NCBI RefSeq assembly: GCF_036588685.1 | Contig: NC_086375.1 | Span: 68,076,001 to 68,140,000 of the forward strand | DNA: 64,000 nucleotides | DNA from: Mytilus trossulus | Lineage: Eukaryota | Direction of reading: 5' to 3' | In this document: positions 599-60,250 of the stretch, in pieces | Layout of the letters: each line of letters begins with the position of its first letter | Position numbering within the stretch: position 1 is the first letter of the stretch | Made by a program: the position numbers and the translations under genes | The notes under the pieces: generated by a model | Database searches by the model: none | What the model was told of the DNA's origin: nothing | The model's input: only the letters and a program-made list of their open reading frames with translations

Positions 599-704
599 GG
601 ACCAGTGTTGTGTATGAGTAGACTAGAAGAAACAGTCAATGATGCAGATTTTATATTTGAATGTGTCATTGAAGATTTAAGCATCAAAAATGAACTAATG
701 GAAA
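599..704 (+). CDS. Gene 1 exon (Rossmann domain, DADFIFECVIEDLSIK motif)
   Basis: Polypyrimidine tract and AG at 597-598; GTATGT donor at 705; open frame. Confidence 0.88.
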
Positions 705-3700
705 GTATGTTACTATTAATGTTTTTCCTCCTATTTTATATAATATGATTAATGGAGATGTGCAGTAGACATCAATTTTAAATCAAAGAAAGTTTCAGAA
801 TGAAATAAAATCTAAGAGATATTATATACGTTTTTACAAGTTGTTGTTAAATAAACACAGACTTTTTTCAGACTCATCAACACTGAATTAAAAATATAGG
901 TAGACAAAAAATTACTGAAAGGTTCTTGACTTTGGGCGATCTACCGGTACTTGTGTATTAGTATTCAACCCTGTTTAGATAACTCAATCTATAGACAAAA
1001 AACAAATAATACAGTTAAATTACACATTGGAATTAAAAATCTATAGACAAAAAACAAATAATACAGTTAAATTACACATTGAAATTAAAAATCTATAGAC
1101 AAAAAACAAATAAAACAGTTAAATTACACATTGGAATTAAAAAATCTATAGACAAAAAACAAATAAAACAGTTAAATTACACATTGGAATTAAAAATCTA
1201 TAGACAAAAAACAAATAAAACAGTTAAATTACACATTGGAATTAAAAATTTATAGACAAAAAACAAATAAAACAGTTAAATTACACATTGGAATTTAAAA
1301 ATCTAAAATAGCATATGACTATAACAGAAGACCAAATAGCAAATAGATCTTTTAGTTAATAATATCATAATTAAATTTTGGATTCAACATACCTTCTGAT
1401 TAACTGAATGTTTTTTGTCAATAAGCTCATGGGCATAATTTTGTCGTGTTACTATTATGCCTTCAGCGTTTTTTTTCTTCATGATTTACTCCTTAAAAAA
1501 ATGAAATCTAGAATTAAATGATTTAAAATGAACTATGTCTATAAAACATTCATTGATTTTTTTTTCAGGAATAACTTACTCCTGCAAACCAGAGTCAATA
1601 ATATGCACAAATTCACTGAGACTTAAAGTTGATGATGTTTTCTGTAAAGTTCAAGGCAAAGAGGTATAGAAATATGCTGTATTAATTGTTTGTAGATCTC
1701 CTAATACATGTTTTGATGCCATTCTGATATTTTATACGGTATAGAAATATATTAAAAAAAAAAATAATATTGGATTTATTTTTTTCATTTTGATTATTGA
1801 TGATCAACTATGATCCACCACACATTTGATGGGGTGGATTTTCTAACTTGACAGTTTCTTAAAATGTTTGAATTATAGATATTGCATTTTCATTTCAAAT
1901 AAGAAATGTTAAAAAATCACTTCAGCTTTTGAATTCAACCTGGTATCAAAATATTACTTCTAAAGTGATATTTTTGAATGTTTACAGAGATGTATTGGAT
2001 TAAGGTTCCTGTATCCAGTTTTTACTTCTTCTAAAGTGATATTTTTGAATGTTTACAGAGATGTATTGGATTAAGGTTCCTGTATCCAGTTTTTACTTCT
2101 TCTAAAGTGATGTTTTTGAATGTTTACAGAGATGTATTGGATTAAGGTTCCTGTATCCAGTATTTACTTCTTCTAAAGTTATATTTTTGAATGTTTACAG
2201 AGATGTATTGGATTAAGGTTCCTGTATCCAGTATTTACTTCTTTTAAAGTGATATTTTTGAATGTTTACAGAGATGTATTGGATTAAGGTTCCTGTATCC
2301 AGTATTTACTTCTTCTAAAGTGATATTTTTGAATGTTTACAGAGATGTATTGGATTAAGGTTCCTGTATCCAGTATTTACCATACCAGAAGTAGAACTTA
2401 CTCCCTGTCAACATACCTCTCAAAGAAATGTAACCAAAGGTAGTAAATTAACAGGTCATTTGTTGAGCAATGAATTAAGAAAAATGTATTTTAGGCTCCA
2501 ACAGCACCAATTGGTGATTTTATGGTAGCAAATTAAGTTTACAACAGACTTGTTAGCTAATCACCATTCTAAAAAAACTAACAGGGATCAATGTCAAATC
2601 ATACATAAAAAATATGTCACACATCATCTGCGCTTGAACTTAACTTTTCATAGCATCAACTGTTCCTTACTAAATCCACCGTCATAGGGAATAGATTATA
2701 AAATAAAGTTTACATGTTTAACCCCGCTGCAATTTTGTGCCTGTCCCAAGTCAGGAGCCACTGGCCTTTGTTAGTCTTGTGATTTTTAATTTTAGTTTCT
2801 TGGGTATAATTGGGAGTTTAGAATGACGTCCATTGTCACTGAACTAGAACTAGTATACATATTTATTAAGGGGCCATTTGAAGGACACCTCCGGGTGAGG
2901 GAGTGGAGTTTCTCGCTACATTGAAGACTCATTGGTGGCCTTCGGCTGTTGTCTGCTCTACGGTCGGGTTGTTTTCGCTTTGACACATTCCCCATTTACA
3001 TTCTCAATTTTATTATGCATTTCAAATAACAAATTTGATAAATTGTAGTGATTCAGATATATAATGTATAGGTATTTTGCAGAATTATTTATTTTTGCTG
3101 TAAAACAATTGGTTGGTTTTTTTTTTTATAGTAAGAGAAATGTTGGAAAAGATGGGTAAAGTACTATTCTTCAGATCTGGGACACAACCTTTGATTTTAT
3201 CTGACCTGCAGAGAGAAGAAAGAAAGAAAGGTATATCATCACTAACCATGCTAAATATTTAAGATGAACTAACGTTATCGTTCAATATTTCATTCAAGCC
3301 TGTTTCTAAAAAATAAAACCATTTATTGAATTACTTTGGTTATTATACAAATGAATTCAGTAGGTTCAGTAAGACCCCTTTTTGGCCCCAAAATATAGCA
3401 GTTTTACAAAATTGATAAAATGTAAACTTTGAGTTATTCATTGCACAGTAGAATGCTTCTGCTACATAAATATGGGCTGTTTTTGATAATACAATGCACA
3501 TATACCCTGTACTAGCACCATTAAGTCATTCTAAATTACTGAAATCTTCACAATTCTAGCATTTTAGTTAAATTTTAGACAGTTTTAGTGTAAAACGAAA
3601 GTGGCCGCATTTGTGTTCATCCCTAATATTGAAATGTAAGTTGTATTTGACGATAATACATAACATATATAAAGGTTGAGGATGAACACGGATGCAACCA

Positions 3701-5414
3701 CTTCCATTTTTTCAAAAAAACATCTGAAAAGTGACATTTTTCGGCATATTTGGTAGATTTTTCATATTTGTGCTTGAATTGGATCGTTTGTAATGACTAA
3801 ATCAGTTAAAATCTTTCACATTAACTAATTAATTCAAATTAAATAGACACTTTAGTGTTTAAAAAGTGGTCAAAATCTTTCGTCAGATGAACCTGAAATT
3901 AGAGGCCAAAATCGGTCCTTACCGGACCTACTCCTTTGGCATTAAATATTTATCTGCAGTCCGCATACACAAATAATTGTTGGAGCATTACTCAACTATC
4001 CTTTTTCATGGAAAGTATCATTTTGAAATGTGATTACTTGATGTAGCAATGCTCAATTCCTTCTTTTCCCAAGAAACACACCAAATAATTCAATTTTAGT
4101 AATTATTTATTTCAATTACGGGAACCTAGAACACTACCATACAAGAAGAATTACCATCTTTGACTGATAATAATAGAAATAATTCATGGAGGTTGAATTT
4201 ATTTAAGAATTGAATGCTTCTTTTTGTAAATTTATTGGGGTGTAAAAGCGTTGACCCAAGTACATTTTGTTTCGGCGCTTCATTTTAAAAATGTACGCAA
4301 GGTCAACGCTTATACAACCCTATAAAGTTACAAAAAGAAGCATTCAATACTTATAATTACATTTTTTAGCTAGGATCATGAAAACACGATCTTTATCAAG
4401 TTTTATTTAATTCACCTGTGCACTTTATTGTGGGACCTCGTGTCATCATGAATGATAAATTTTATTGTCTCATGCAATTGCTTACGGAATAACATGTGAT
4501 GTGCAGTTAGCCAATCAGAATAACGTATTATAATGAAACATACATCTAATGTAATTATTATGATTTATTATTCCAAATATTTTACCACAAGCAAAATGTG
4601 AAGCAATTTGTAACTTACAAAAATATATATGGTAAAACATGTACCAAATCAAAATTTAATGTTAAATAGTTTAATGAATAAAACCAATGAAAAATGTCTG
4701 AGTGAAGAATTATTTCTATTTCAGCTTGTTTAGAAAGAATATTAAACTCATCAGGTATGGGGTGTCTATATGAGAAAACCATTCCAAGTTTGACCTTGGA
4801 GCCAGGAGGTCATGGGGGCAGTGTTGTCACTGTCAAAGAAACCAAAAAAGGTAAATCAAGAATTACCAATAGTATTTTACAATTGAAATTTTTTTTTCAT
4901 GATTTTGTATTTAACAAAAAATAAATATTCAGACATGTTATTTCTAGTACGGTAAACTTGGGATTTCAGAATCAGATTTTTACAATATAATAATCTTGGT
5001 ATTTGGTCTTCTGAATACTTGAAATTTTTGTTATTTTAATGTGGGTCATGAATGGTTCCAACTAACTTTTTAATTGAAATGTTTAAATATTGCCATTTAC
5101 ATTTAAGTACTGCAGAATCTTAGTAAAGTATTGAACTGTTGTATATAGGAATGTAACCCATTGGCTGTATATATCAATTAAAGTAAGGCTACAACATGAG
5201 ACTTGCAAATTTAACAATCCAACTTAATCCTACTATTTTATGTTTTACAGAAGAATGTGCTATATGTATGGATAGATCAAGAAACAGTGTGATATGTCCA
5301 TGTCATCATTTAGTAGCTTGTTATGAGTGTACAAAGATGTTACTAAACAGAAAAGATGCCTGTCCTATCTGTAGAAAAGACATAACAGAAGTTATCAGAG
5401 TTTATCATTCCTAG
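599..5414 (+). CDS. 5'-partial spliced gene: 3-hydroxyacyl-CoA dehydrogenase-like NAD-binding domain fused to a C-terminal RING finger (putative E3 ligase); join(599..704,1569..1663,2343..2439,3132..3230,4725..4850,5251..5414), 228 aa in window
   Basis: All exons have AG/GT boundaries and compatible phases. Translation: GPVLCMSRLEETVNDADFIFECVIEDLSIKNELMER-ITYSCKPESIICTNSLRLKVDDVFCKVQGKE-RCIGLRFLYPVFTIPEVELTPCQHTSQRNVTK-VREMLEKMGKVLFFRSGTQPLILSDLQREERKK-ACLERILNSSGMGCLYEKTIPSLTLEPGGHGGSVVTVKETKK-EECAICMDRSRNSVICPCHHLVACYECTKMLLNRKDACPICRKDITEVIRVYHS*. It aligns by eye to the 3HCDH consensus DADLVIEAVxExLxxK...ILASNTSSL...R.IGxHFFNP....LVE....TS....GK. Confidence 0.88.
987..1305. repeat. About 51-52 bp intronic minisatellite, about 6 copies
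   Basis: Unit aatctatagacaaaaaacaaataa(t/a)acagttaaattacacattggaattaaa. Confidence 0.9.
1569..1663 (+). CDS. Gene 1 exon (IICTNSLRL, equivalent to ILASNTSSL)
   Basis: tttttcag acceptor; GAG|gtatag donor; phase 1 to 0. Confidence 0.88.
1954..2380. repeat. 71-bp tandem repeat (6 copies) spanning an intron-exon junction of gene 1
   Basis: tttacag|AGATGTATTGG recurs with exon-side starts at 1988, 2059, 2130, 2201, 2272 and 2343. Confidence 0.95.
2343..2439 (+). CDS. Gene 1 exon (IGLRFLYP, equivalent to IGxHFFNP)
   Basis: tttacag acceptor in the last copy of the 71-bp repeat; AAG|gtagta donor. Confidence 0.85.
2710..3013 (+). mobile_element. About 300-bp non-autonomous interspersed repeat; a partial, diverged copy lies at about 47735-47860
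   Basis: GC-richer island; the segment taggggcca(g/t)(c/t)tgaag...ttctc.ct..attgaaga...tttgacac is shared by the two loci. Confidence 0.65.
3132..3230 (+). CDS. Gene 1 exon (end of Rossmann domain, MGK motif, start of linker)
   Basis: Poly-T followed by tag acceptor; AAG|gtatat donor; phase 1 to 1. Confidence 0.85.
3359..3934. mobile_element. MITE with imperfect terminal inverted repeats (Kolobok-like)
   Basis: Left end agtaggttcagtaagacccctttttggcc; reverse complement of right end ggagtaggtccggtaaggaccgattttggcc. Confidence 0.7.
4203..4558. mobile_element. Non-autonomous element with a long internal hairpin (Crypton-like)
   Basis: About 50-bp inverted arms at 4206-4256 and 4301-4352. Confidence 0.6.
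4725..4850 (+). CDS. Gene 1 linker exon
   Basis: tttcag acceptor; AAG|gtaaat donor; phase 1 to 1; open frame. Confidence 0.8.
5251..5414 (+). CDS. Gene 1 terminal exon: C3HC4-type RING finger (IAP/MDM2-like)
   Basis: CAIC...PCHH..ACYEC...CPICR followed by VIRVYHS*; ttttacag acceptor at 5250. Confidence 0.93.
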
Positions 5415-6107
5415 CTAAATTTAAATGTTGTCTCTTGAAGATATGTATCTTTCCTCAACCATTTCGTTATATGGGCCCACATTATTTGTGAGAAGACAAA
5501 TAGTTTGTGTCCTGTTCATTTGTGTGTCTGACATTTTTCTAAAGTTTGCCACACAAAATGTCTCACATTTGATAAACTAGAAGCAATGGAATTAAACTTA
5601 AGAAAATGACTTCATTTTAGTTCTGCACTTCTTATTTTATTTACAATGACTTGAGAAAAACCTTACTGGTTCTCAATAGCAAATCTCATGCAATTCACAT
5701 TGGAATAGAATGAACCATGATAGAATTGCCTCAGAACATGTACAGTTGGATTTCATAGTTTTTTGTAGATTAAATGGTTTTAGGATTAACTTTCTGTTTA
5801 TGCCACCTGAACAGAGAGAATTAGGGAAACATATGAATTTATGTCAAAACAAACATTAGTTCACCAGAAAATGGCATTTATCTGTCTCACTTTGTGTTCA
5901 TAGGGTACAGGAAATGAATAAGCAGTTTTTTTTTTAAAATACCCTAAGAAAGAATATAAGTGTAACCTTAGTTATTGTTTTAAAGGTGTATATATGTTGA
6001 TTATTTTCAGAGGCATTAGCGGTTGTTGGTTGATGTGGTCTGTTGTACTGTTTCTATGATTATTTTGGTTAATTTGTTGTAAAGATCTGTTACCCTTTGT
6101 CTATGAA

Positions 6108-6266
6108 GTGCACCATACCCTTATCCAGAGGGGGGTTCGGACAATCTCCCCTTGAAATCAAATAAGCACTGTTAAATCAATAGTCTGTTCGAATTGTGAC
6201 TGTTAAAGTCGAGTTTGTGAGTCCCCCCCCCCCCCCCTTAGAAATTCCTGACTATGGGCCTGTGCA
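6108..6266. mobile_element. Small GC-rich MITE-like insert in the gene 1 3' region
   Basis: A G-run near the left end and a C-run near the right end, in an AT-rich context. Confidence 0.45.
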
Positions 6267-14794: not shown

Positions 14795-16986
14795 TCAACA
14801 GTCTGTGTCATCGTCATCATGTCCGGACGTGGAAACTGACACACGAATGTTTTCTTTATTTTCAATTTTTACCGCTGGAATAATATTATTGTCACTGTCA
14901 GTATTGAAAATTACATCTGTTAAATTATTGGGGAGTTTGATGGAATCCGGAGACAAACCGAGACCATTGTCCTTCCCGTTGGCAGTATATGGAGGTGGTG
15001 GCGTTGAACTACGACTTGATGATTCTGTCAAAGAATGTAATGACTGCAGTGATTCAGAATTGTCCGACAAATTTGCTAAATTTTCTCTTGCTCGAAAGAA
15101 ATTTGATTTTTTCATTCCTTTTTGTTCACTTTCATCTTCATTGATACTATCATTTGATGAAATGATATCTTCATTTATACTGGAATTAATGGTATCGCTA
15201 TCATCAATAACATTATGGTCTCGCCAATCTTTAACTGAATCATCCTGTGGAATATCAGAAAATGATCCTGACCTAACTAACCTTTTACCTGACCAATCTA
15301 ATGAATTGTCAGTAGAATCTTTCGTCACATTTCCTGTGAAAGAACCTGTTCTTGTCATTTGCAATGTATTTTCATACTGTTCTAAATTTCCAATTTTATC
15401 AAAACAAGACATTGTCCTCAAAACAGATGATGATTTTGAATCAACAGTAACTGTTCTCACTGATCCAGTAGTATAATCATCCCTCACTTCAAAAGCTATT
15501 CCCCTTTTTTGTGAATCCTTTTCTTGTTTTGATTTTTGGCTCATTTGAGTTTCTATATCATTTAATTCATTCATAGATATATCGTAGGACATACCACTGA
15601 TTGATTCTTTTGTATTCCTGCTAGGGTATGGTGTAGAAAACAAACTAGGGTTTGATGATGTCACATTAAAGTCAACTTCTGAGGTATTTTGTAATTTTGA
15701 TTCATTTTTTTCATCGCCAGAGCTTGAAAATGATGAACTGCTATTGGATGCTTTTATTACTGTATCATTACATACATCTGATCCTATACTTGAATTTTCA
15801 CCATTTTCGGTTGGGGAACCTTTAAATGCTATCAGATTTGATAATAACTGACCAGAAGAATCTTTCTTTGAATGCTCTGGAGTAATAAGTTCCTCATCAA
15901 CAATAGGTCTATTATCAGGAGTTGACGGTCTCAGAGTACTTTCCATATCTGATAAGCTGTAATCCACAAGTGTAAGACTACCGATATCAGGTGAGGACCT
16001 TGAGGTATCAGATTTTATAGTAATGTCCACATCACTGAATTCAATTTTGTCACTCAAGACTGAAGTATTTCTATCCTTAATTGCAGGTGTGATAATTTCC
16101 TCTGATACCTCATCTATATATACATAGGACTTTGGTTGTGATTCTGATAACTGTACGTCTGATTCGGTGAACACTTCCTGTACTTCAATATCTGGTGACT
16201 GTAATGAACTAACTCTTGGACTGATAGAAATGTCACTGGACGATACACTGCTACCACTAGACCGATTCTTTTTCCTCCTTTCTGGTTTGGTTGGAGCAGA
16301 TTTTGATTCTACAACAACTGTATCCAAGTCTAAAGAACCTACTGATTTAGGAGTTTCAGTGAAAGAAGTTTCAGCAGATGAAACAACAACTTTACTATTA
16401 TTTGAGTCATCATTTGGATCTTCATAACTTAGTCTCAACATATCTAGCTTATCTTGTTCATTCAGTTTATCAAACAAGTTTGCAGCAAAAGCTGTTGCAT
16501 TTGACGTGTCATGTTTTTCATTTCCGTCCACCATATCTACAGTGACTGATGGGATATTAGTTGGTTCCCTCTCTACTGTCACTACTGTTTCTTTGAAGAC
16601 CTCCTCACCATTTGTTAACTTTAAATCATTCTTACTTCCATTTTCTTGAATTGTCGGGAAAGCTTCCCCTTTACCAGAGAAAGATGGTGCCGCTGATGAC
16701 CTTTGATGATTTTCCTTCTTTTTTTCTGGCCTCATTTCACTAAAGCTCCTTTGAGGCATTAATGTAGAATCTTTCCTTATTTTCTTTAACGTATCCATTG
16801 ACTGACTTCTGTACAGAGGATGACTGAGAGTAGACGGAGACTCGCTGACACGACGGTCTTTACGTACAAGTTTCTCTTTTTGTAATGTGACTCTGACAGG
16901 GTAGGGTGAGGCATAACTAAGAATGGTAAGTGCATCTTCATACACCATGTTCTCAAAGGAAATGGTTACACTCAAAATACGATCCC
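14795..16986 (-). CDS. Gene 2 large terminal exon: PDZ C-terminal half plus about 690 aa acidic Ser-rich tail
   Basis: Lies within the 752-aa ORF 14795..17053; tttttcag acceptor at 16987-16989; ends HDDDDTDC*. Confidence 0.92.
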
Positions 16987-19900
16987 CTGAAAAATAAATT
17001 GTATACAAAATTAGAAATTTTATACACAAAGGAAAGAGACTCATTGAATGCAATGTTGCATGAATAACTTGATGTATATATGCTGAATTATTTCTCTATT
17101 TACAAATTATTTCCTTTGCTTTGTTTGTTTTCCTGTTAGTTAAGACAAATATGTTTATGTATCTTCTACCATCTAGGTGGTCTTGTAGAAGCCTGCATGC
17201 CTTAATAACAAGATAGTTGATGATTGGTTTGATCCCTAACCTGGTCCAACAAAAGACTTAAAACTTGGTATATGATGCTTTTTAACTAAGTATGCAACAT
17301 AAAGAATTGAGAGCCAAGACTGTTTAGCTAATTGTTAGAATAATGTGTCTTGGCAATGTAGGATGTCTTTTTGCAGACTGTTATCTTGTGAACTAACACA
17401 TTAAAATCCAAGTAAGCATTTTGCTGTTGCCTTACCAGACTCAAATTTAACACTCATAAGAAAAAAATATTAACATCATGCAGTATGGTACATTTGGATA
17501 AAGAACATAAAAATACAAAGAAGTACTGTGGATCTGTATGTGCTTATTTTAGTGTGTTTCTTAATACATCAACTAACTTTTTATCTCTTACATTTTTTTT
17601 TTTTATACTATGTAGATAACATTTGGAAAAAAATAAAACAAAATAATTAATTTCATATTCCATATCTTTCTGATAGATTTGCTCATGTAACATCAAGAGA
17701 CATACCAACTTTAAATTGTCCTGATTCTACAGCTGGTCCCCTGTTGTGAACCTGACTGACAAATATACCATCTCTCATGCTACCAGCTATATTAAATCCA
17801 AGACCTATGAAATCCTGACTCTGCAGCCATACACTGCTAACCTCTGGGTCCTGAAAATAGAAACAATACTATCTTGACCTTTTATTCTAAAATTTAGATT
17901 TTTGATGAAAACATATCTTTTCTGCATGGCCTTGTTTATCTGTGGTACCTGAAAGTATGATGATTCCATCTAGATTTATAACAAGAATGTGTCCCTAGTA
18001 CATGGAGGTATTGATTTGATACCTATAGAATTATATAGAAATGATTTACTTTTAAATGTTTTACATAATTTATTTAATAAGTGTTTTAAGGTGGTAGACC
18101 TAGGTTAAGGGTAATAACTCTTAAAATCATCAGTACGTTTGTGTCAGCCATTTTCATAAACATGTTCCAAGCTTCTAGGATACATAGATTATTTTCAATC
18201 TGTTTCAGGTAAATGCTTAAAATACATCAATAAAACTTGACTATTACAAACGCATCACTGAATTAAAGAGTTATCTCCCTGGACCAAGGTCTACCCCCTT
18301 AAATTTGGGAAAAATCCCCTTCATGTGGAGAAAAGGGATAATAACACCTATACCTAAGTGTTCTACAACAGACACTCGTGATCCTTTTTCATATCGGGGC
18401 ATTACATTGTCACCATGTAGCTATAAATTATTTTGTAGCATTTTAAATAATAGAATAGTATCTTGGTTAGAAACTAAAAATATTTTATACGATGAGCAAA
18501 ACGGATTTCGGGGGGGTAGAAGTACTATTGACCATTTGAGTACGCTAACATCGATTATTGAAACCAGAAAATTACGAAAATTATCTACGTTTACAGTGTC
18601 AGTAGATTTTAAAAAGGCATATGACACAGTTAATAGAAATTTATTGTTTAATGATCTTAATGATCTTGGTATAAGTAAACATTTTTTGTGTGTTATTAAA
18701 GCTATTAATTCTCAATTTGAATGTGCTATTAAATTAAATGGGCATATGACTGAATGGTTTAGTGTAAATTCAGGCCTAAAACAAGGCTGTGTTTTGTCGC
18801 CAATTTTATTCAATATTTTTATAAACAGCTTAGTTACAAATATTAAAGCATTAGATATTGGTATTGATATTGATGGTGAAAAAGTTGGCATTTTGTTATA
18901 TGCAGACGACATTGTACTGATTGCAGAGAATGAAAGCGATTTGCAATTACTCTTAGATGTTTTAAATATATGGTGTAAAAATAAGTTATTAAATGTTAAT
19001 CACGAGAAAACTAAAATTGTACACTTTAGAAATCCTTCTGTACAGCAGACAACAACAGTGTTTTTATTTAATGATAAGCAGATATGTATTGTACAAAGCT
19101 ATCAATATCTGGGTTTACTATTAACTGAATTTTTAAATTATGATGTAATGGCTAAAGCTGTAGCCAAATCAGCGAACAGGGCATTAAGTTTGATTATTGT
19201 AAAGAGTAAGGCCCATGGAGGTTTCCAGTACAGTACATTTAATAAATTATTTGATAGCCTGGTCTGGCCAGTAATAAGTTATGGTGCAGCCATTTGGGGC
19301 ACCAGAGATTTTTCATGTATAAATGCTGTCCAGAACAGAGCTATCTGGTCTTTTATGGGTGTGGGTAAATATACCCCAAACGATGCAATTCAAGGGGATA
19401 TGGGCTGGAGACCTCCAAGTGTTAAGCAGTGGACTTGTGTTTTTCGACACTGGGCTAGATGTAACATAATGTGCACAGATAGATTAAATTATAGAATTTT
19501 TAAATGGTGTTATAGAAATGCTCTTAATAAGAGAAGAAATTGGTGTTTTAGGATTATGTCTAAGTTTAAAGAATGTAATTTAGATTTGTATACTGATTTA
19601 AATAATGTACTGTGTAAACAAAATATTATGCAGATAGAAGAATTTTTACTTGATAAGTATATAGAAAATTTGCAAAATAGAATATTAACACAAGATGTTG
19701 GTAAAAAATTGCGGACTTATAAATTGTTTAAAGACAGTTATGGTAGTGAATTATATTTATCTAAAACATTATCTTATAGATATAGAAGTGCTTTTGCTAA
19801 ATTTAGATGCGGAGTAGTTCCGTTGAGAATTGAAACAGGGTGGAATGAAAATAAAAATGTAGACGAAAGAGTGTGTTTTATGTGTTTTATGTTTAATGAT

Positions 19901-22900
19901 AACATAGAAGACGAAAAACATGTAATACTATCATGTCCTTCATATGCACATTTGAGCTTTTGTTTATATAGCGAAGCTATGAAATATAATGTAGATTTTG
20001 ATGATTTGTCTGATGATGATAAATTTGTTTATTTATTTAAAAACATTAATTGTTATGATATGGTTGCCAAAACCTGTTTTGATATTTTAAGTAGAAGAAA
20101 TACCTTTTTATATTCTTAAAATGAAATGATTTTAATAATCGTATGTATTTTAACTAGTTTTATATAGAAATGGTTTTATAGTCTCTCATAATTCTTAATA
20201 GAATGGTACTTGTAATTTATATTTGTGTATTGTCTGTTTTATATTGTGTATATACTCTGTATGTACTGTATATTTATGTATTGCAAGTAGTGAGACTTTA
20301 ATAAAATATTGAATCTGAATCTGAATCTGGATGCCCAATCTGCACTATCATTTTCTATGTTCAGTGGACCGTGAAAATGAGGTAAAAACTCTAATTTGGC
20401 ATTAAAATTAGAAATATCATATCATAGGCAACATGTGTACTAAGTTTCAAGTTGATTGAACTTCAACTTCATCAAAAACTACCTGGACCAAAAACTTTAA
20501 CCTGAAGTGTGACAGATGGACAAATGAAAGTACAAACGAACAAACGGATGAATGAACGAAGGAACAAATGAACAGATGCACAGACCAAAAAACATAATGC
20601 CCATTAAAAGGGCATAAAAAGCATTTCATTGGCTTAAATTTCTAAATGTTTACCCCAACCAGTTAAACTATAACAAACTACTCTGATTTTTATAATCTAA
20701 TAGAACATTCAACAGCCTTCTCTATTCTACAAACAAGCAGGATACACTGCATAATGAATGAATTGGGTTTGCTGACAAATTTTCTTAAAGAAGCCATTCT
20801 TGGGAAGCCAAAGCAAGCAGATTTCTGAAACACATACCATCTGTCTCTTATCTTTGAACTTGCATTTTTTCTGTGAATAAAATATTTTTAATAAAAAAGA
20901 ACATGTTTTCCCTCTGAAGCAACAAATCTGTACATAGCTTGCCTTTTATTCCTTTATGAGAATAAATCTCATATTACAATCAAATTATCAAAAGTCAGTA
21001 TTCATTCCTAAACCTAAACACTAAGTATCTATTTAACAAACAGAGTATATTCAATTGTGACATACAGAGGAAAATATTGACAGTTGTCACCTAGGTTCTA
21101 CATTTATCAAATATGTATGAAATCAAATCGTTCATTAATTTTGAAGGCTTTCCTACTTTATTATTAGTGTTTACCCTATTTAAATTGTGAAGGACCTTTC
21201 AATACTGATAAAATTGAAGAGGTCTCCATTTATAGATGATATGTTATCAATGATTTCTTGTCTTTTTAGTAGGTAGTTGGAATTCCTGTGTGTGAATAAT
21301 CCTCTTTAAAAATTGGCCTACTGTTTGAAGTAGGTATTTAATTTGATATTTAAATAAAAGGGACATTATTCATATTGTCATATTTCATTCAAAAGATGGT
21401 TTATTCAGTAAAAGTGAACAGTGGAAATTGTAACAATAAATAGTTAGGCTGGTCCTTCAACTACTAAGGTTTAATCTAAATTTACTGCTATGCTATGCAT
21501 TAAAATCAGAATCTCTTAGCAAAATATCTATAGGTTCATTCAAGTATTAACAAATCTAGAATTACCAATATTTTCCTGAATACACTATGTTGCTAGATCT
21601 CTCAAAGGTAAACATGAGGCCTGAAAAATACTGTTATCAAGATCACTTACCACCTGGTAAAATTTTTAGGTCAGACCTGGTCTTTAAAGATCAGTAATAC
21701 TCCAAAAAATTATGTTAAGGATAATTGAATAATTTCAATGTTAGCAAAGAAAACATTTTAACTATGATCATTATGAATACAGTGATCTTAAAAGGGAGAT
21801 AACCAAAACTGATATTTGTTCCAATATATTGTAGATATCCTATAGGTATCTAAAATATTATACTAAGGCTTTTTCAATGTTACAGTCAGTACTAAAAGGT
21901 TCTACTCTGTAAACAGAACCTTAATAGTATGTTAATTAACACAAATACCATGCAAAAGGATCTGAGCTCAAAGAAAATCCTACAGTTGATTCCATGTATT
22001 ATATTTGTCAAAAACATCTCTTAGTATGCAATAGCTGTTTTATATAAATGGTCATGTATTTTTTTACCTTTTAAGTCTATAAAAATATATAAATTTCTAT
22101 AATGACCTCATAAATTAAATGTGAATTATGTTTGTTTGTTTGCATCATACGTATATATAATGACACATACTGTAGAGAGGAAGGTGTAAACAAGCTAAAT
22201 GATAAATATTGACTTAGAAACCTAATTTGTCCTGATCTATTTAATTTTTATTTGAAAATTACATAATGAGTCAATCTAACACATGAAAAACTTATATACA
22301 AATTAACTACAAGTTTATTTATTCTTTTTAAAGTCCATTGTTAACAACACTAAGAATGAGGGAATTATAATGGAAAATCTACATTTATGTACCAGCTTTA
22401 TAGGAATTACATCGTTTGAATTGCATTTTCCGTCTTTTTAAGCACTTTTTTCAATTGTCACTAACATACTTCAAAAATGCTCATCCGGATACAAAAGGCA
22501 TCAATTTAAACTGAAATATATATCCACCCTTCCTTTAAGAAAAAATATTTACATAATCAATGTAAGATCTACCTGAAAGAAGACCTTTTATGTCTGTTTA
22601 TCCTCTCTACAAAGAAAGTTGTTTTGTCTGCTTTACATATACGGTACACATATTTTTCAATACTGAAAACAGATCTGTGCATGCTTGCTTTTAGCAAGTT
22701 ATGTGTGGTGACCAGTCATGCTTTTTCATAGATTTAGCCAAAAGAAATAAGAATGAAAATGCTAATGTTAGTTATGATTAAAAGCAAATAACATGTGAAA
22801 ATTAGAAATTTGGACTGTCATTGTACTGTTTAAATCTTGTTTATTCTTAATTTTCAAACCAACTAGCAGAAACTTTTGCTAACTAGAATAAAATAATTTT

Positions 22901-56460: not shown

Positions 56461-58375
56461 CCTTTTGCCAGGAAAAGACTTCAGGACACAATTTCGAGTA
56501 AAATTCTGATTAGGAATTTGTATCACCCTTACAGTCCTTTCAGGATCAGAACATTTGTTCCGAAGTTAAGTGAGGTTATCCGACAGAAAACCCGGAGTGC
56601 TGAAAACGGCGGTTTTCGGGTCATACAGCGAGCTCTAACACTTTTTATGATAAGAAATCGGGGATAGGAAGATACCCAAAACCAAATGAATGTCACTTTG
56701 ACAGTAAAACTTACTGTTGCAAAAGACGAAAAGATACTAAGGGAGCAATCAAACACAATACCGGGTACGTCAGGCAACATGCACACAACACAATGACCAA
56801 ACGAATGAAAAATGAAAAAAAAACCCAGACTAAAACAGCCTACAAAAAATCCGTGACACAGATATTGAGCAATATGGACCCCACCAAAACATTGAAGGAA
56901 ATAAGATAATCCAAAAGGATCAGTATGTGTTTTTCTATTATATTTTTCTCTCATCAAAATGAGAGTTGACGGTTATTTGTTCATATTTCTTATTGTGACA
57001 AAGGAGAAAAATCACAGTACAATACACAACCCCTCTTAAAAAAATAAATGAAATTGAATGAAACTTGAAGTGATTGATTGGTATCTATAGCTATTTCTAT
57101 TAGTAAGCGCTTGAACAAAATAAAGTTTGGCATCAGCTGATCTCCAGAATCAATGTCTCTATAGATCTATTCTAACCAGAATCAGGACGATTTTAAAGAT
57201 ACGCCCAACTAATGGCACACAAGATATTACATGGACTATTTCAGACTGTATACATTGATTGACTGTTGCTTGCATTTATCTAGTGAAAAATGCACATCGA
57301 AGACGAAAACAAAGCAACAACGACCAGCATATACAAAGACCAATTTGGATTGCCAACAGCAAATACGGTATGTTCGATATGCCTTTCAACGGTGAGCCTA
57401 TTTGACACATCAGAGATGCACGGGTTTTTAACGTGCATGCACTGTGCACGGATCATAGGATTAAATGCGATCATTTCTACAGGACGTGACTGCGCATTCA
57501 TACATCCTGAACAGCCAATCAGACATCCCACTCTAGCGATGGATTACTGCAGGACGGGAGAAGTTAAAGGATGATTTGTTTTTATTTCACCTTTGGGGTC
57601 TGGGTTGTATGAAATCGTTATATATAAAAGTATTACATCGTGCTGTAAGAGTCCTTATTATTAAACATCTATACCTACTTTTTGCCATTTTATAGCTGGC
57701 TAAACCTCTCACTTGTATGACAGTCGCATCAAATTCCAATATATTGACAACGATGTGTGAACAAAACAAACAAACATAATAGGTACAAATTTCATAAAAA
57801 GGGGTACAGCAGTCAACATTGTGTTATCCTTTTAATCACTATAAAACAAACAAATATATGTACAGAGCCACGTCATATGCATCAAGAAACACAAAAATGC
57901 ATATAGTCAAAGGACATTAGCAAAAATGAAAGACAAGAATACAAAAAATATTAGAACAATAACATAATGAGGGATAAATAAGTACCGAGTCACGTCTAAT
58001 GGGTATCATAAAAACAGACTTAACATTCATAAAGGCAAATAAAAGAATAATATAACACGTTATTAAGACGATGAACAACGTCAGTAACCAGAACCTATAC
58101 TTCAAGACCATCGTGTACTATATGTGAAGTTGTTACGGAGTATTATCAGCAAGGTCTTGATAACTTCCGATAAACTTTTTTATGAAAAGGACATACCTCT
58201 GGTTCATCAACTTTATGCTCAGACACAACTAGTTAAAACATATTTAAATATATTTATGAGACTCTTGTGGATTTGTACTCAAAATTCAATTTTGTACGGA
58301 CAATGAGTTCAGTTTAACAAAATTTGTAACATACTACAAATTTAAAATTTTGTCATACAAAATTGACTTTTGTTA

Positions 58376-60250
58376 CCTAAATCCATCAATTGGAAATACA
58401 ACTTTAAAATTTTTGATGGATTCAGTCGAGGATTATGCCAGGGCTAAGCGCGAGAAGGAAGACATTGACACTCTATCCGAATGGATTAAGGCAGTGAGGT
58501 CGTTAATACAAATCAGAACTAAGAAACTGAATGGGTCCATCAACGCCCATGCTAAGTCAATCTTTAAAGACCCAAATGTTGCTAAACACCTATACGACCT
58601 CCATGATAAATATGTTGTTGTCCCCGCAGACAAAGCCCCAAATAACATCGTTTTTGTCTGTAAAAGTCATTACATTAATTGCTTGATAAACGAATTAGGT
58701 ATAGACAATTCACTTGGAAACTCAACATATACCCTCACGACACTTACCAAAGAGGAAATCCTGGATAATCATAGGTCTGTTCTGTGTTCCTTTGGTATTT
58801 CAACTAAAGATGAAGAACTGAATCTTCCATCACTGTATTGGATACCTAAACTACATAATTGTCCTTACAAACAACAGTATATTGCTGGGTCTTCCAAGTC
58901 CTCCACGAAACATCTTTCTAAATTATTAACATCTATTTTATCAGCAATAAAAGACGGACTTCAAAGTTATTGTGAAACTGCCTATTCTAGAGGTGGCGTG
59001 AATCAGATGTGGATACTTAAAAATTCCAAAGATCTTTTAGAGTACATACAATCTAACTCTCTTTCATCTTGTAACAGTATTAAAACATTTGACTTTTCTA
59101 CTCTTTACACAAGTATTCCACATTCCAAACTAAAAGACAAATTAAAAGAGTTGGTATTACTTTGCTTCATAAAAAGAATGGCCAACGGAGATACAAGTAT
59201 CTTGTCTTAGGGAGGGATAAATCCTACTTTGTAAAGAATCACTCTGATTCAAACAAAAATTTCTCTGAAACTGATATTATCAAGATGCTTGATTTCTTGA
59301 TTAACAACATATTTGTTACGTCCGGATGACGTGTTTTTCAACAGACTGTTGGCATCCCAATGGGAACAAACTGTGCCCCTCTACTTGCTGACTTGTTTCT
59401 TTATTATTATGACGCTGACTCCATGCAGAAACTTCTTAGGAAGAAAAATAAGAAGTTAGCAATATCCTTTAACTCTTCTTTCCGCTATATAGATGCCGTT
59501 CTTTCACTAAACAATTCAAAATTTGGTGACTATGTGGAACGCATCTATCTCATCGAATTGGAGATAAAGGATACTACAGATACAGTTAAGTCGGCTTCAT
59601 ATCTTGACTTACATTTAGAAATTGACAATGAGGATCGGTTGAAGACAAAACTTTACGACAAAAGAGATGATTTCAGCTTTCCAATTGCGAACTTTCCATT
59701 TCTAAGTAGCAACATTCCAGCAGCACCTGCATACGGGGTATATATCTCCCAATTGATACGATAATCCCGTGCTTGCATTTCCTATCATGATTTTCTTGAT
59801 AGAGGGTTACTGCTTACAAGGAAGCTATTACACCAAGAGTTCCAAATGGTGAAGTTGAAATCATCCCTTCGTAAATTTTACGGACGCCATCACGAGTTGG
59901 TTGACCGTTATGGAATAACCGTTTCACAAATGATATCGGATATGTTCCTTGCGTCGTAACTACAATCCCCTTCCCTTTCATGAATGTGACCTACCGAATT
60001 AGACTATTTACCGGATTTGTAATCACATAGGCAACACGACGGGTGCCACATGTGGAGCAGGATCTGTTTACCCATCCGGAGCACCTGAGATCACCCCTAG
60101 TTTTTGGTGGGGTTCGTGTTGTTTATTCTTTAGTTTTCTATGTTGTGTCATGTGTACTATTGTTTTTATGTCTGTCTTTTTCATTTTTAGCCATGACGTT
60201 GTCAGTTTGTTTTGGATTTATGAGTTTGACTGTCCCTTTGGTATCTTTCG
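58376..60250 (+). mobile_element. Penelope-like element (Naiad-type, RT at the C-terminus), 5'-truncated and inactivated
   Basis: VPADKA, LYWIPKLH, TFDFSTLYTSIPH, GIPMGTNCAPLLADLFL, RYIDA (from YIDD), LYDKRDDF, YGVYISQLIR. Frameshift near 59175, in-frame stops near 59327 and 59762. No GIY-YIG after the thumb region. Confidence 0.88.

Follow-up and report, generated by a model that had tools for sequence, protein, structure and literature searches.

Rossmann folds resembling those of dehydrogenases have been reused for regulation by nicotinamide adenine dinucleotides (NAD(P)(H)) in sensors such as CtBP, NmrA/HSCARG and Rex, all of other Rossmann families than the domain discussed here and none known to us with a ubiquitin ligase (E3) domain in the same chain. 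Certain E3s, among them RNF146, CHFR and Deltex, combine a RING finger with a module for NAD-derived ligands built on the WWE, PBZ or DTC fold, and we know of no characterised single-chain E3 with a dinucleotide-binding module of its own. The catalytic Rossmann domains closest to our subject are those of the HAD enzymes, in which, according to two reports, His158 of HAD takes the proton and Glu170 anchors it, the catalytic site sits at the interface to the dimerisation domain, whose Asn208 sandwiches ligands (PMC10988713), and Ser137 and His158 adjoin the nicotinamide (PMC6333283, section 3.3). Here we describe a gene of the mussel Mytilus trossulus that joins such a Rossmann domain, stripped of its catalytic residues and of its dimerisation domain, to a RING finger. 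Its last six coding exons lie at positions 599 to 5,414 of a 64,000-nucleotide stretch of DNA (RefSeq assembly GCF_036588685.1, contig NC_086375.1, positions 68,076,001 to 68,140,000 of the forward strand), referred to below as the window, and its product belongs to an old eukaryotic fusion family that is apparently uncharacterised and is mis-annotated.

The mussel fusion gene is real. Each of the six window exons is preceded by an AG acceptor, the first five are closed by a GT donor, and their phases are compatible, as an original prediction made from the DNA letters had it; joined, they encode 228 amino acids and a stop, with RVYHS at the C-terminus. They amount to residues 64-291 and include about two thirds of the Rossmann domain, so that the prediction was right about the 3HCDH_N identity of this domain and too low in its estimate that the second half was present. 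The upstream exons that it proposed to look for, with their GxGxxG motif, were recovered: two of them supply the ATG, GAGLLG (the GxGxxG motif, in exon 1) and Asp31, together residues 1-63. The features of the gene are:

G000:C3:68070997-68071048, coding exon 1, upstream of the window, about 5.0 kb before it
G000:C3:68075706-68075842, coding exon 2, upstream of the window, about 0.3 kb before it
599..704, + strand, coding exon 3, residues 64-98, with Glu84 (659-661), Glu88 (671-673) and Lys93 (686-688), equivalent to HAD Glu106, Glu110 and Lys115
1569..1663, + strand, coding exon 4, residues 99-130, with Asn113 kept and Leu115 (1616-1618) in place of the catalytic Ser137
2343..2439, + strand, coding exon 5, residues 131-162, with the GLRFLYPV motif, Arg136 (2358-2360), Tyr139 and Glu148
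3132..3230, + strand, coding exon 6, residues 163-195, the end of the Rossmann domain, an FFRSG-PLIL segment standing where HAD has its hinge, and the start of a long helix
4725..4850, + strand, coding exon 7, residues 196-237, the end of the helix and a low-confidence linker
5251..5414, + strand, coding exon 8, residues 238-291, the C3HC4 RING (Cys240-Cys278), linchpin Arg279, Tyr289 and the stop
5415..6213, + strand, 3' untranslated region, minimum extent, one contig spanning the 4850/5251 joint to 6213

Splicing was read from contigs of four of the 22 listed public runs, which belong to three studies and whose RNA status is a guess; the claim of expression rests on the spliced joints, because no run is recorded as RNA. 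Of the two junctions at which splicing was to be checked, 3230/4725 occurs as a GT..AG joint in contigs of all four runs and 4850/5251, which leads into the RING exon, in those of three, and the latter rules out a separate gene for the RING exon. Contigs of all four runs also hold the 2439/3132 joint and those of two runs the 704/1569 joint, while none across 1663/2343 was among the matches listed; separate contigs cover further 3' stretches up to about 7100. The acceptor of exon 5 is embedded in a 71-base-pair (bp) tandem repeat of six copies (1957..2380, + strand), every one of which has this acceptor and the first codons; the five upstream copies read into a stop, and splicing at them may give non-productive transcripts. 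Pfam searches with single exons returned 3HCDH_N at E-values of 5e-4 and 0.1 and zf-C3HC4_3 at 2e-15, and the linker exon alone, as a query, retrieved a 291-residue protein (P0001) with 3HCDH_N as well as RING, which at full length matches PF02737 (116.7 bits) and PF13920 above their cut-offs. The eight-exon product has 291 residues, all 291 identical to the Mytilus RefSeq protein XP_063429616.1, whose database name is '3-hydroxybutyryl-CoA dehydrogenase-like'; the gene model is already in the databases, under an enzyme name. The host genome has further 3HCDH_N loci.

What sets the Rossmann domain apart is its active site, the rebuilding of which escaped the original prediction. With the residue mapping to human HAD fixed through the mutant chains S137C and S137A of the alignment, Arg136 falls on His158, Leu115 on Ser137, Tyr139 on Asn161 and Glu148 on the retained Glu170. 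Across the domains of 220 proteins, the His158 column is Arg in 132 of the 134 RING-bearing domains with a letter there (14 are gapped) and never His, and all 60 His-type domains are without RING; another 27 Arg domains have no detected RING, many of them short or partial. After thinning to below 55% identity (54 family and 63 His-type representatives), both sets share GxGxxG, Glu106, Glu110, Lys115, Asn135, Pro162 and Glu170, and differ at Gly29, Gln32, Val33, Ser137, His158, Phe160, Asn161 and position 163. On the NAD side, the family keeps GxGxxG (47-49 rows with letters), Glu106, Glu/Asp110 and Lys115 at 100%, Asn135 at 78%, and Asp45 in 101 of 112; GxGxxG, Glu84 and Lys93 are invariant despite an overall identity of about 25%. 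On the substrate side, the residues have been exchanged together: His158 has become Arg in 98% of the 54 representatives, Ser137 Leu, Met or Ile in 96%, and Asn161 Tyr, His or Phe in 78%. Such a fixed new set of residues suggests a new function for the former catalytic pocket more than it does drift. Judged by its residues, the domain resembles NAD(H)-sensing pseudoenzymes, the nucleotide site kept and the catalytic residues lost, and it probably binds a nucleotide of some kind; for NAD(H) in particular, the ligand first suggested, it is residue conservation that speaks in favour. Acidic residues 47 and 54 are weakly conserved across the family and are not used here as an argument on coenzyme A (CoA).

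The replacement of the dimerisation domain, likewise anticipated, is borne out by its C-terminal profile, which matches none of 118 family members as against 59 of 62 His-type enzymes, and by a search of 94 kb with this profile, in which no 3HCDH C-terminal exon was found (best E 3.1). In its place the AlphaFold model of P0001 (predicted local distance difference test score, pLDDT, 87; predicted template modelling score, pTM, 0.68) has one long helix and a low-confidence loop between Rossmann domain and RING; the linker of about 60 residues that had been postulated does lie between the domains, and is better described as a strand, a 19-residue helix and some 30 low-confidence residues. A short-tether relative gives the same domain order (pLDDT 94, pTM 0.76), and neither of the two models has any sign of a fixed packing of RING on Rossmann domain. 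Fold searches, in which the RING was barely tested, lead from the N-terminal domain to HAD, HBD and CRYL1, with a match to 9fbd at Z 27.1 and a root-mean-square deviation (rmsd) of 2.0 over 183 residues. From Arg to RING the distance is 65-340 residues in 119 of 120 members. None of the 120 has a C-terminus like peroxisomal targeting signal 1 (PTS1), and in 75 of 106 GxGxxG begins no more than 12 residues into the protein, too few to accommodate a presequence. Most members open directly on the first strand, and extensions of more than 30 residues occur in 18 of the 106. The sequences thus give no sign of a peroxisomal, N-terminal targeting, membrane or organelle signal.

The mussel RING, as its sequence had suggested from the outset, is of the IAP/MDM2/MGRN1 type, its nearest solved counterparts being those of cIAP2, MGRN1, cIAP1, XIAP and MDM2. 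Of 118 members, 116 have eight zinc ligands in C3HC4 order; the linchpin Arg (Arg279 in the mussel) is present in 114 of 116, a hydrophobic residue after the first Cys (Ile242) in 115 and the E2-binding position of Pro276 in 107. The aromatic tail proposed to mediate dimerisation is present here as Tyr289 and is common (F, Y, W or H in 87 of 116), without being universal, so that dimerisation driven by the tail would not be family-wide. By its sequence the protein qualifies as a RING E3, and E3 activity as such is very probable.

The fusion extends well beyond mussels, through many invertebrate phyla and further, as the search for the 3HCDH_N plus zf-C3HC4_3 architecture across metazoans brought out. 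Both domains are present in 61 of 70 matches to P0001, those with names coming from molluscs, annelids, a brachiopod, nemerteans, hemichordates, echinoderms, a rotifer and Trichoplax. A wider profile search of 1.84 billion representatives, from which the best 150 matches were taken, added many distant Rossmann-RING fusions; the fifteen for which an organism name was obtained, out of 20 looked up, include sponges, cnidarians, a barnacle, amphioxus, a snail, an annelid and Seison among animals and, outside them, three choanoflagellates, Acanthamoeba, Cymbomonas and Emiliania, a green alga and a haptophyte being among the groups. An automatic cluster of the ESM Atlas with this domain pair has 152 eukaryotic members. 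Vertebrates, insects, nematodes, fungi and land plants are all missing among the named matches, a gap that suggests loss without proving it, since most matches are unnamed and two of the searches depend on shared words. Exact-pattern scans, which are insensitive, confirmed as relatives none of 78 matches to three family peptides in GTDB genomes and none of 15, 13 and 8 matches in IMG/VR. Trees built on only the Rossmann domain, from which domains of fewer than 140 positions were excluded and in which the diagnostic column was kept, place the family on one side of a branch, with 129 of 209 rows and a support of 94 in a FastTree analysis and, in a second, hand-picked tree, with 32 of 67 rows and a Shimodaira-Hasegawa-like approximate likelihood ratio test (SH-aLRT) value of 96; by these sequences, the family Rossmann domains form one clade. 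One clade member, P0210, has a U-box (E 6e-11) in place of the RING, a link between the pseudo-enzyme and E2 recruitment that does not depend on this particular RING. Variants among P0210, P0188, P0206, P0138, P0111 and P0290 comprise, with that U-box, two N-terminal protein kinases and a tandem arrangement with Rossmann-RING twice, and the same protein set holds an N-terminal PX domain, possibly a model fusion, and four CCHH repeats in the Acanthamoeba member.

One family member, P0070, is intronless. It lies at L009:10001-11983 on a metagenome contig densely packed with genes, where OTU and F-box genes follow immediately downstream of it. The contig also has genes for a dUTPase, an RPB7/RpoE-like subunit (E 5e-8), glycosyltransferases, an RPE65-like protein and a Rieske oxygenase, and by this gene content it is giant-virus-like. 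P0197 is the sister of this copy, 58% identical to it. The octamer that we take to be the mimivirus-type promoter motif is not enriched on the contig (6 found, 5.45 expected).

Taken together, the data lead us to propose, tentatively and with somewhat less than an even chance of being right, that the mussel protein is a cytosolic RING E3 in which the NAD(H)-binding domain of a pseudo-dehydrogenase and its rebuilt pocket form a nucleotide-dependent recognition surface. The RING would bind a ubiquitin-charged conjugating enzyme (E2~ubiquitin) and NAD(H) would occupy the retained dinucleotide site; the pocket that once took the substrate, now rebuilt with Arg136, Leu115, Leu138, Tyr139, Val141 and Glu19, would no longer support hydride transfer and would offer a new recognition surface beside the nicotinamide. 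Its fixed positive charge would favour NADH over NAD+, so that substrate capture or self-ubiquitylation would track redox state, and the highly variable tether makes recruitment of a target likelier than rigid allosteric control of the RING. Besides the residue pattern, the RING and the U-box variant, we count in favour of this proposal the OTU and F-box neighbours of the giant-virus-like copy and the other 3HCDH_N loci kept by the host. A broader version of the idea, possible but rather doubtful, would make this an ancient single-chain E3 family, directly gated by NAD(H) or ADP-ribose through the rebuilt pocket and retained in lineages as far apart as protists and amphioxus, though not in the usual model organisms; giant viruses would have captured it to direct host ubiquitylation against a redox- or NAD-based defence state of the cell.

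Several points weigh against this proposal. The retained NAD contacts would be just as suitable for a structural nucleotide or for ADP-ribose; the preference for NADH is a purely electrostatic argument; and the roles of HAD Glu110, Lys115, Asn135, Asp45 and Asn161, like those of the E2-binding hydrophobic residues, the linchpin Arg and the tail in the RING, are those we presume. Conservation of the RING is partly circular, because the RING profile by which members were selected derives from the family itself, and 29 of 116 lack the aromatic tail. In eleven Arg-type domains of the clade no RING was detected; one of the eleven has the U-box and one a weak RING, several look truncated or mispredicted, and P0151, P0161, P0178 and P0181 could be RING-less forms. 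Lastly, Arg arose at the His158 position twice outside the clade, in the enzymes P0237 and P0248.

Among other readings, the Rossmann domain might simply be a constitutive protein-binding module, with a structural nucleotide or none and an E3 that no metabolite gates. Large conserved surface patches off the catalytic site in animals (residues 62-79 and 173-185, for example), the long variable tether and the unfixed RING of both AlphaFold models (pTM 0.68 and 0.76) would suit it, yet the patches are not family-wide, and a structural role explains less well why GxGxxG, Glu84 and Lys93 are invariant at such low overall identity; we think it unlikely, while granting it a real chance. An E3 directed to ADP-ribose, binding the ADP-ribose half of NAD on proteins or polymers or presenting NAD or ADP-ribose for ubiquitylation, is also unlikely. 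It agrees with the kept contacts to adenosine, pyrophosphate and second ribose beside an altered pocket next to the nicotinamide, and the giant-virus-like copy and the kinase fusions would suit a role in defence or signalling. The four CCHH repeats of the Acanthamoeba member, placed between Rossmann domain and RING, have a spacing like that of PBZ as we presume this motif to be, and 7 of 10 structure rows for them are clusters with PF10283; all Atlas rows fall below threshold, however, Pfam does not place PF10283 on the repeats even at E 10, and they occur in one lineage only. A PBZ identity is not confirmed. Moreover, a scan of 29 proteins found none with a WWE, macro or PARP partner, and the mussel protein contains no WWE, PBZ, macro or DTC domain.

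The invariant Arg-Glu pair at the catalytic position, the complete NAD site and the fold matches to HBD and CRYL1 (Z 27, rmsd 2.0-2.5) would accommodate an NAD-dependent enzyme of changed chemistry, its Arg binding a carboxylate or phosphate and its fused E3 controlling its own turnover or that of partners. We consider this improbable: the Ser137 position is hydrophobic, none of the NCBIfam enzyme models comes anywhere near its cut-off, and the HAD site forms at the interface with a dimerisation domain (PMC10988713) that all 118 members lack. Coupling of fatty-acid oxidation to ubiquitylation by an acyl-CoA or CoA sensor, the second option originally put forward, draws on the ancestry in the 3-hydroxyacyl-CoA dehydrogenase family and on an Arg or Lys at position 15, present in about half of the representatives, which could bind phosphates. 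It emerges weaker than proposed, and improbable, with the substrate-facing Ser137, His158 and Asn161 replaced, Asn208 gone along with the domain that completes the cleft, no PTS1-like end and, in most members, no space for a presequence. That the fusion is an artefact of two genes merged in a model, for which one could cite a few database models that stop before the RING (P0054, P0056), is refuted by the spliced joints into the RING exon, the two-domain matches and the intronless copy, and its probability is negligible.

Other features of the window include a 52-bp tandem repeat of six copies (986-1305) in the intron after exon 3. At 2641-3120, 3361-4560 and 6001-6240, in introns and 3' sequence, contig depth exceeds that over the exons by factors of hundreds to thousands, which indicates very common interspersed repeats there. 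Farther on, a Ser-rich open frame of 766 codons (14795-17095, - strand), to which Pfam has no match, probably represents a large exon from a neighbouring, oppositely oriented gene, a 632-codon reverse-transcriptase frame (18221-20119, + strand; RVT_1, E 2e-36) is likely a LINE-type element, and frames at 58260-59764, again without a Pfam match, resemble fragments of another retroelement.

If the proposed nucleotide-dependent E3 is correct, protein turnover would be linked directly to NAD status, which might be of relevance to intertidal animals that cycle through hypoxia, and a small protein (291 residues) with no sign of targeting and with clear mutants makes the idea readily testable. Many RefSeq models of the family carry the names of beta-oxidation enzymes, a misnaming that can mislead pathway readings of invertebrate transcriptomes and that is corrected here. 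A full-text literature search, with most subscription papers and supplementary architecture tables outside its scope, found no published description of a Rossmann-RING fusion; one report describes a CRYL1 fusion of a different kind (PMC12337341).

Compared with known systems, the mussel family has in common with the HAD family (human HAD, HBD and CRYL1; PF02737 plus PF00725) the N-terminal fold and the NAD-side residues, but carries Arg for His158, a hydrophobic residue for Ser137 and a mostly aromatic one for Asn161, and has a RING or U-box instead of PF00725; it descends from these enzymes and yet stands outside them, because three of their defining features fail. With the IAP, MDM2 and MGRN1 RING E3s (PF13920) it shares the C3HC4 spacing, the linchpin Arg and mostly a tail of 13 residues whose third-last is aromatic, a tail that many protist-like members have not kept, whereas in place of a BIR, p53-binding or other known recognition domain it has the pseudo-dehydrogenase. 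And where RNF146, CHFR and Deltex read NAD-derived ligands through folds of their own, the mussel family, for which binding of ADP-ribose is a proposal, would use a dehydrogenase-like fold.

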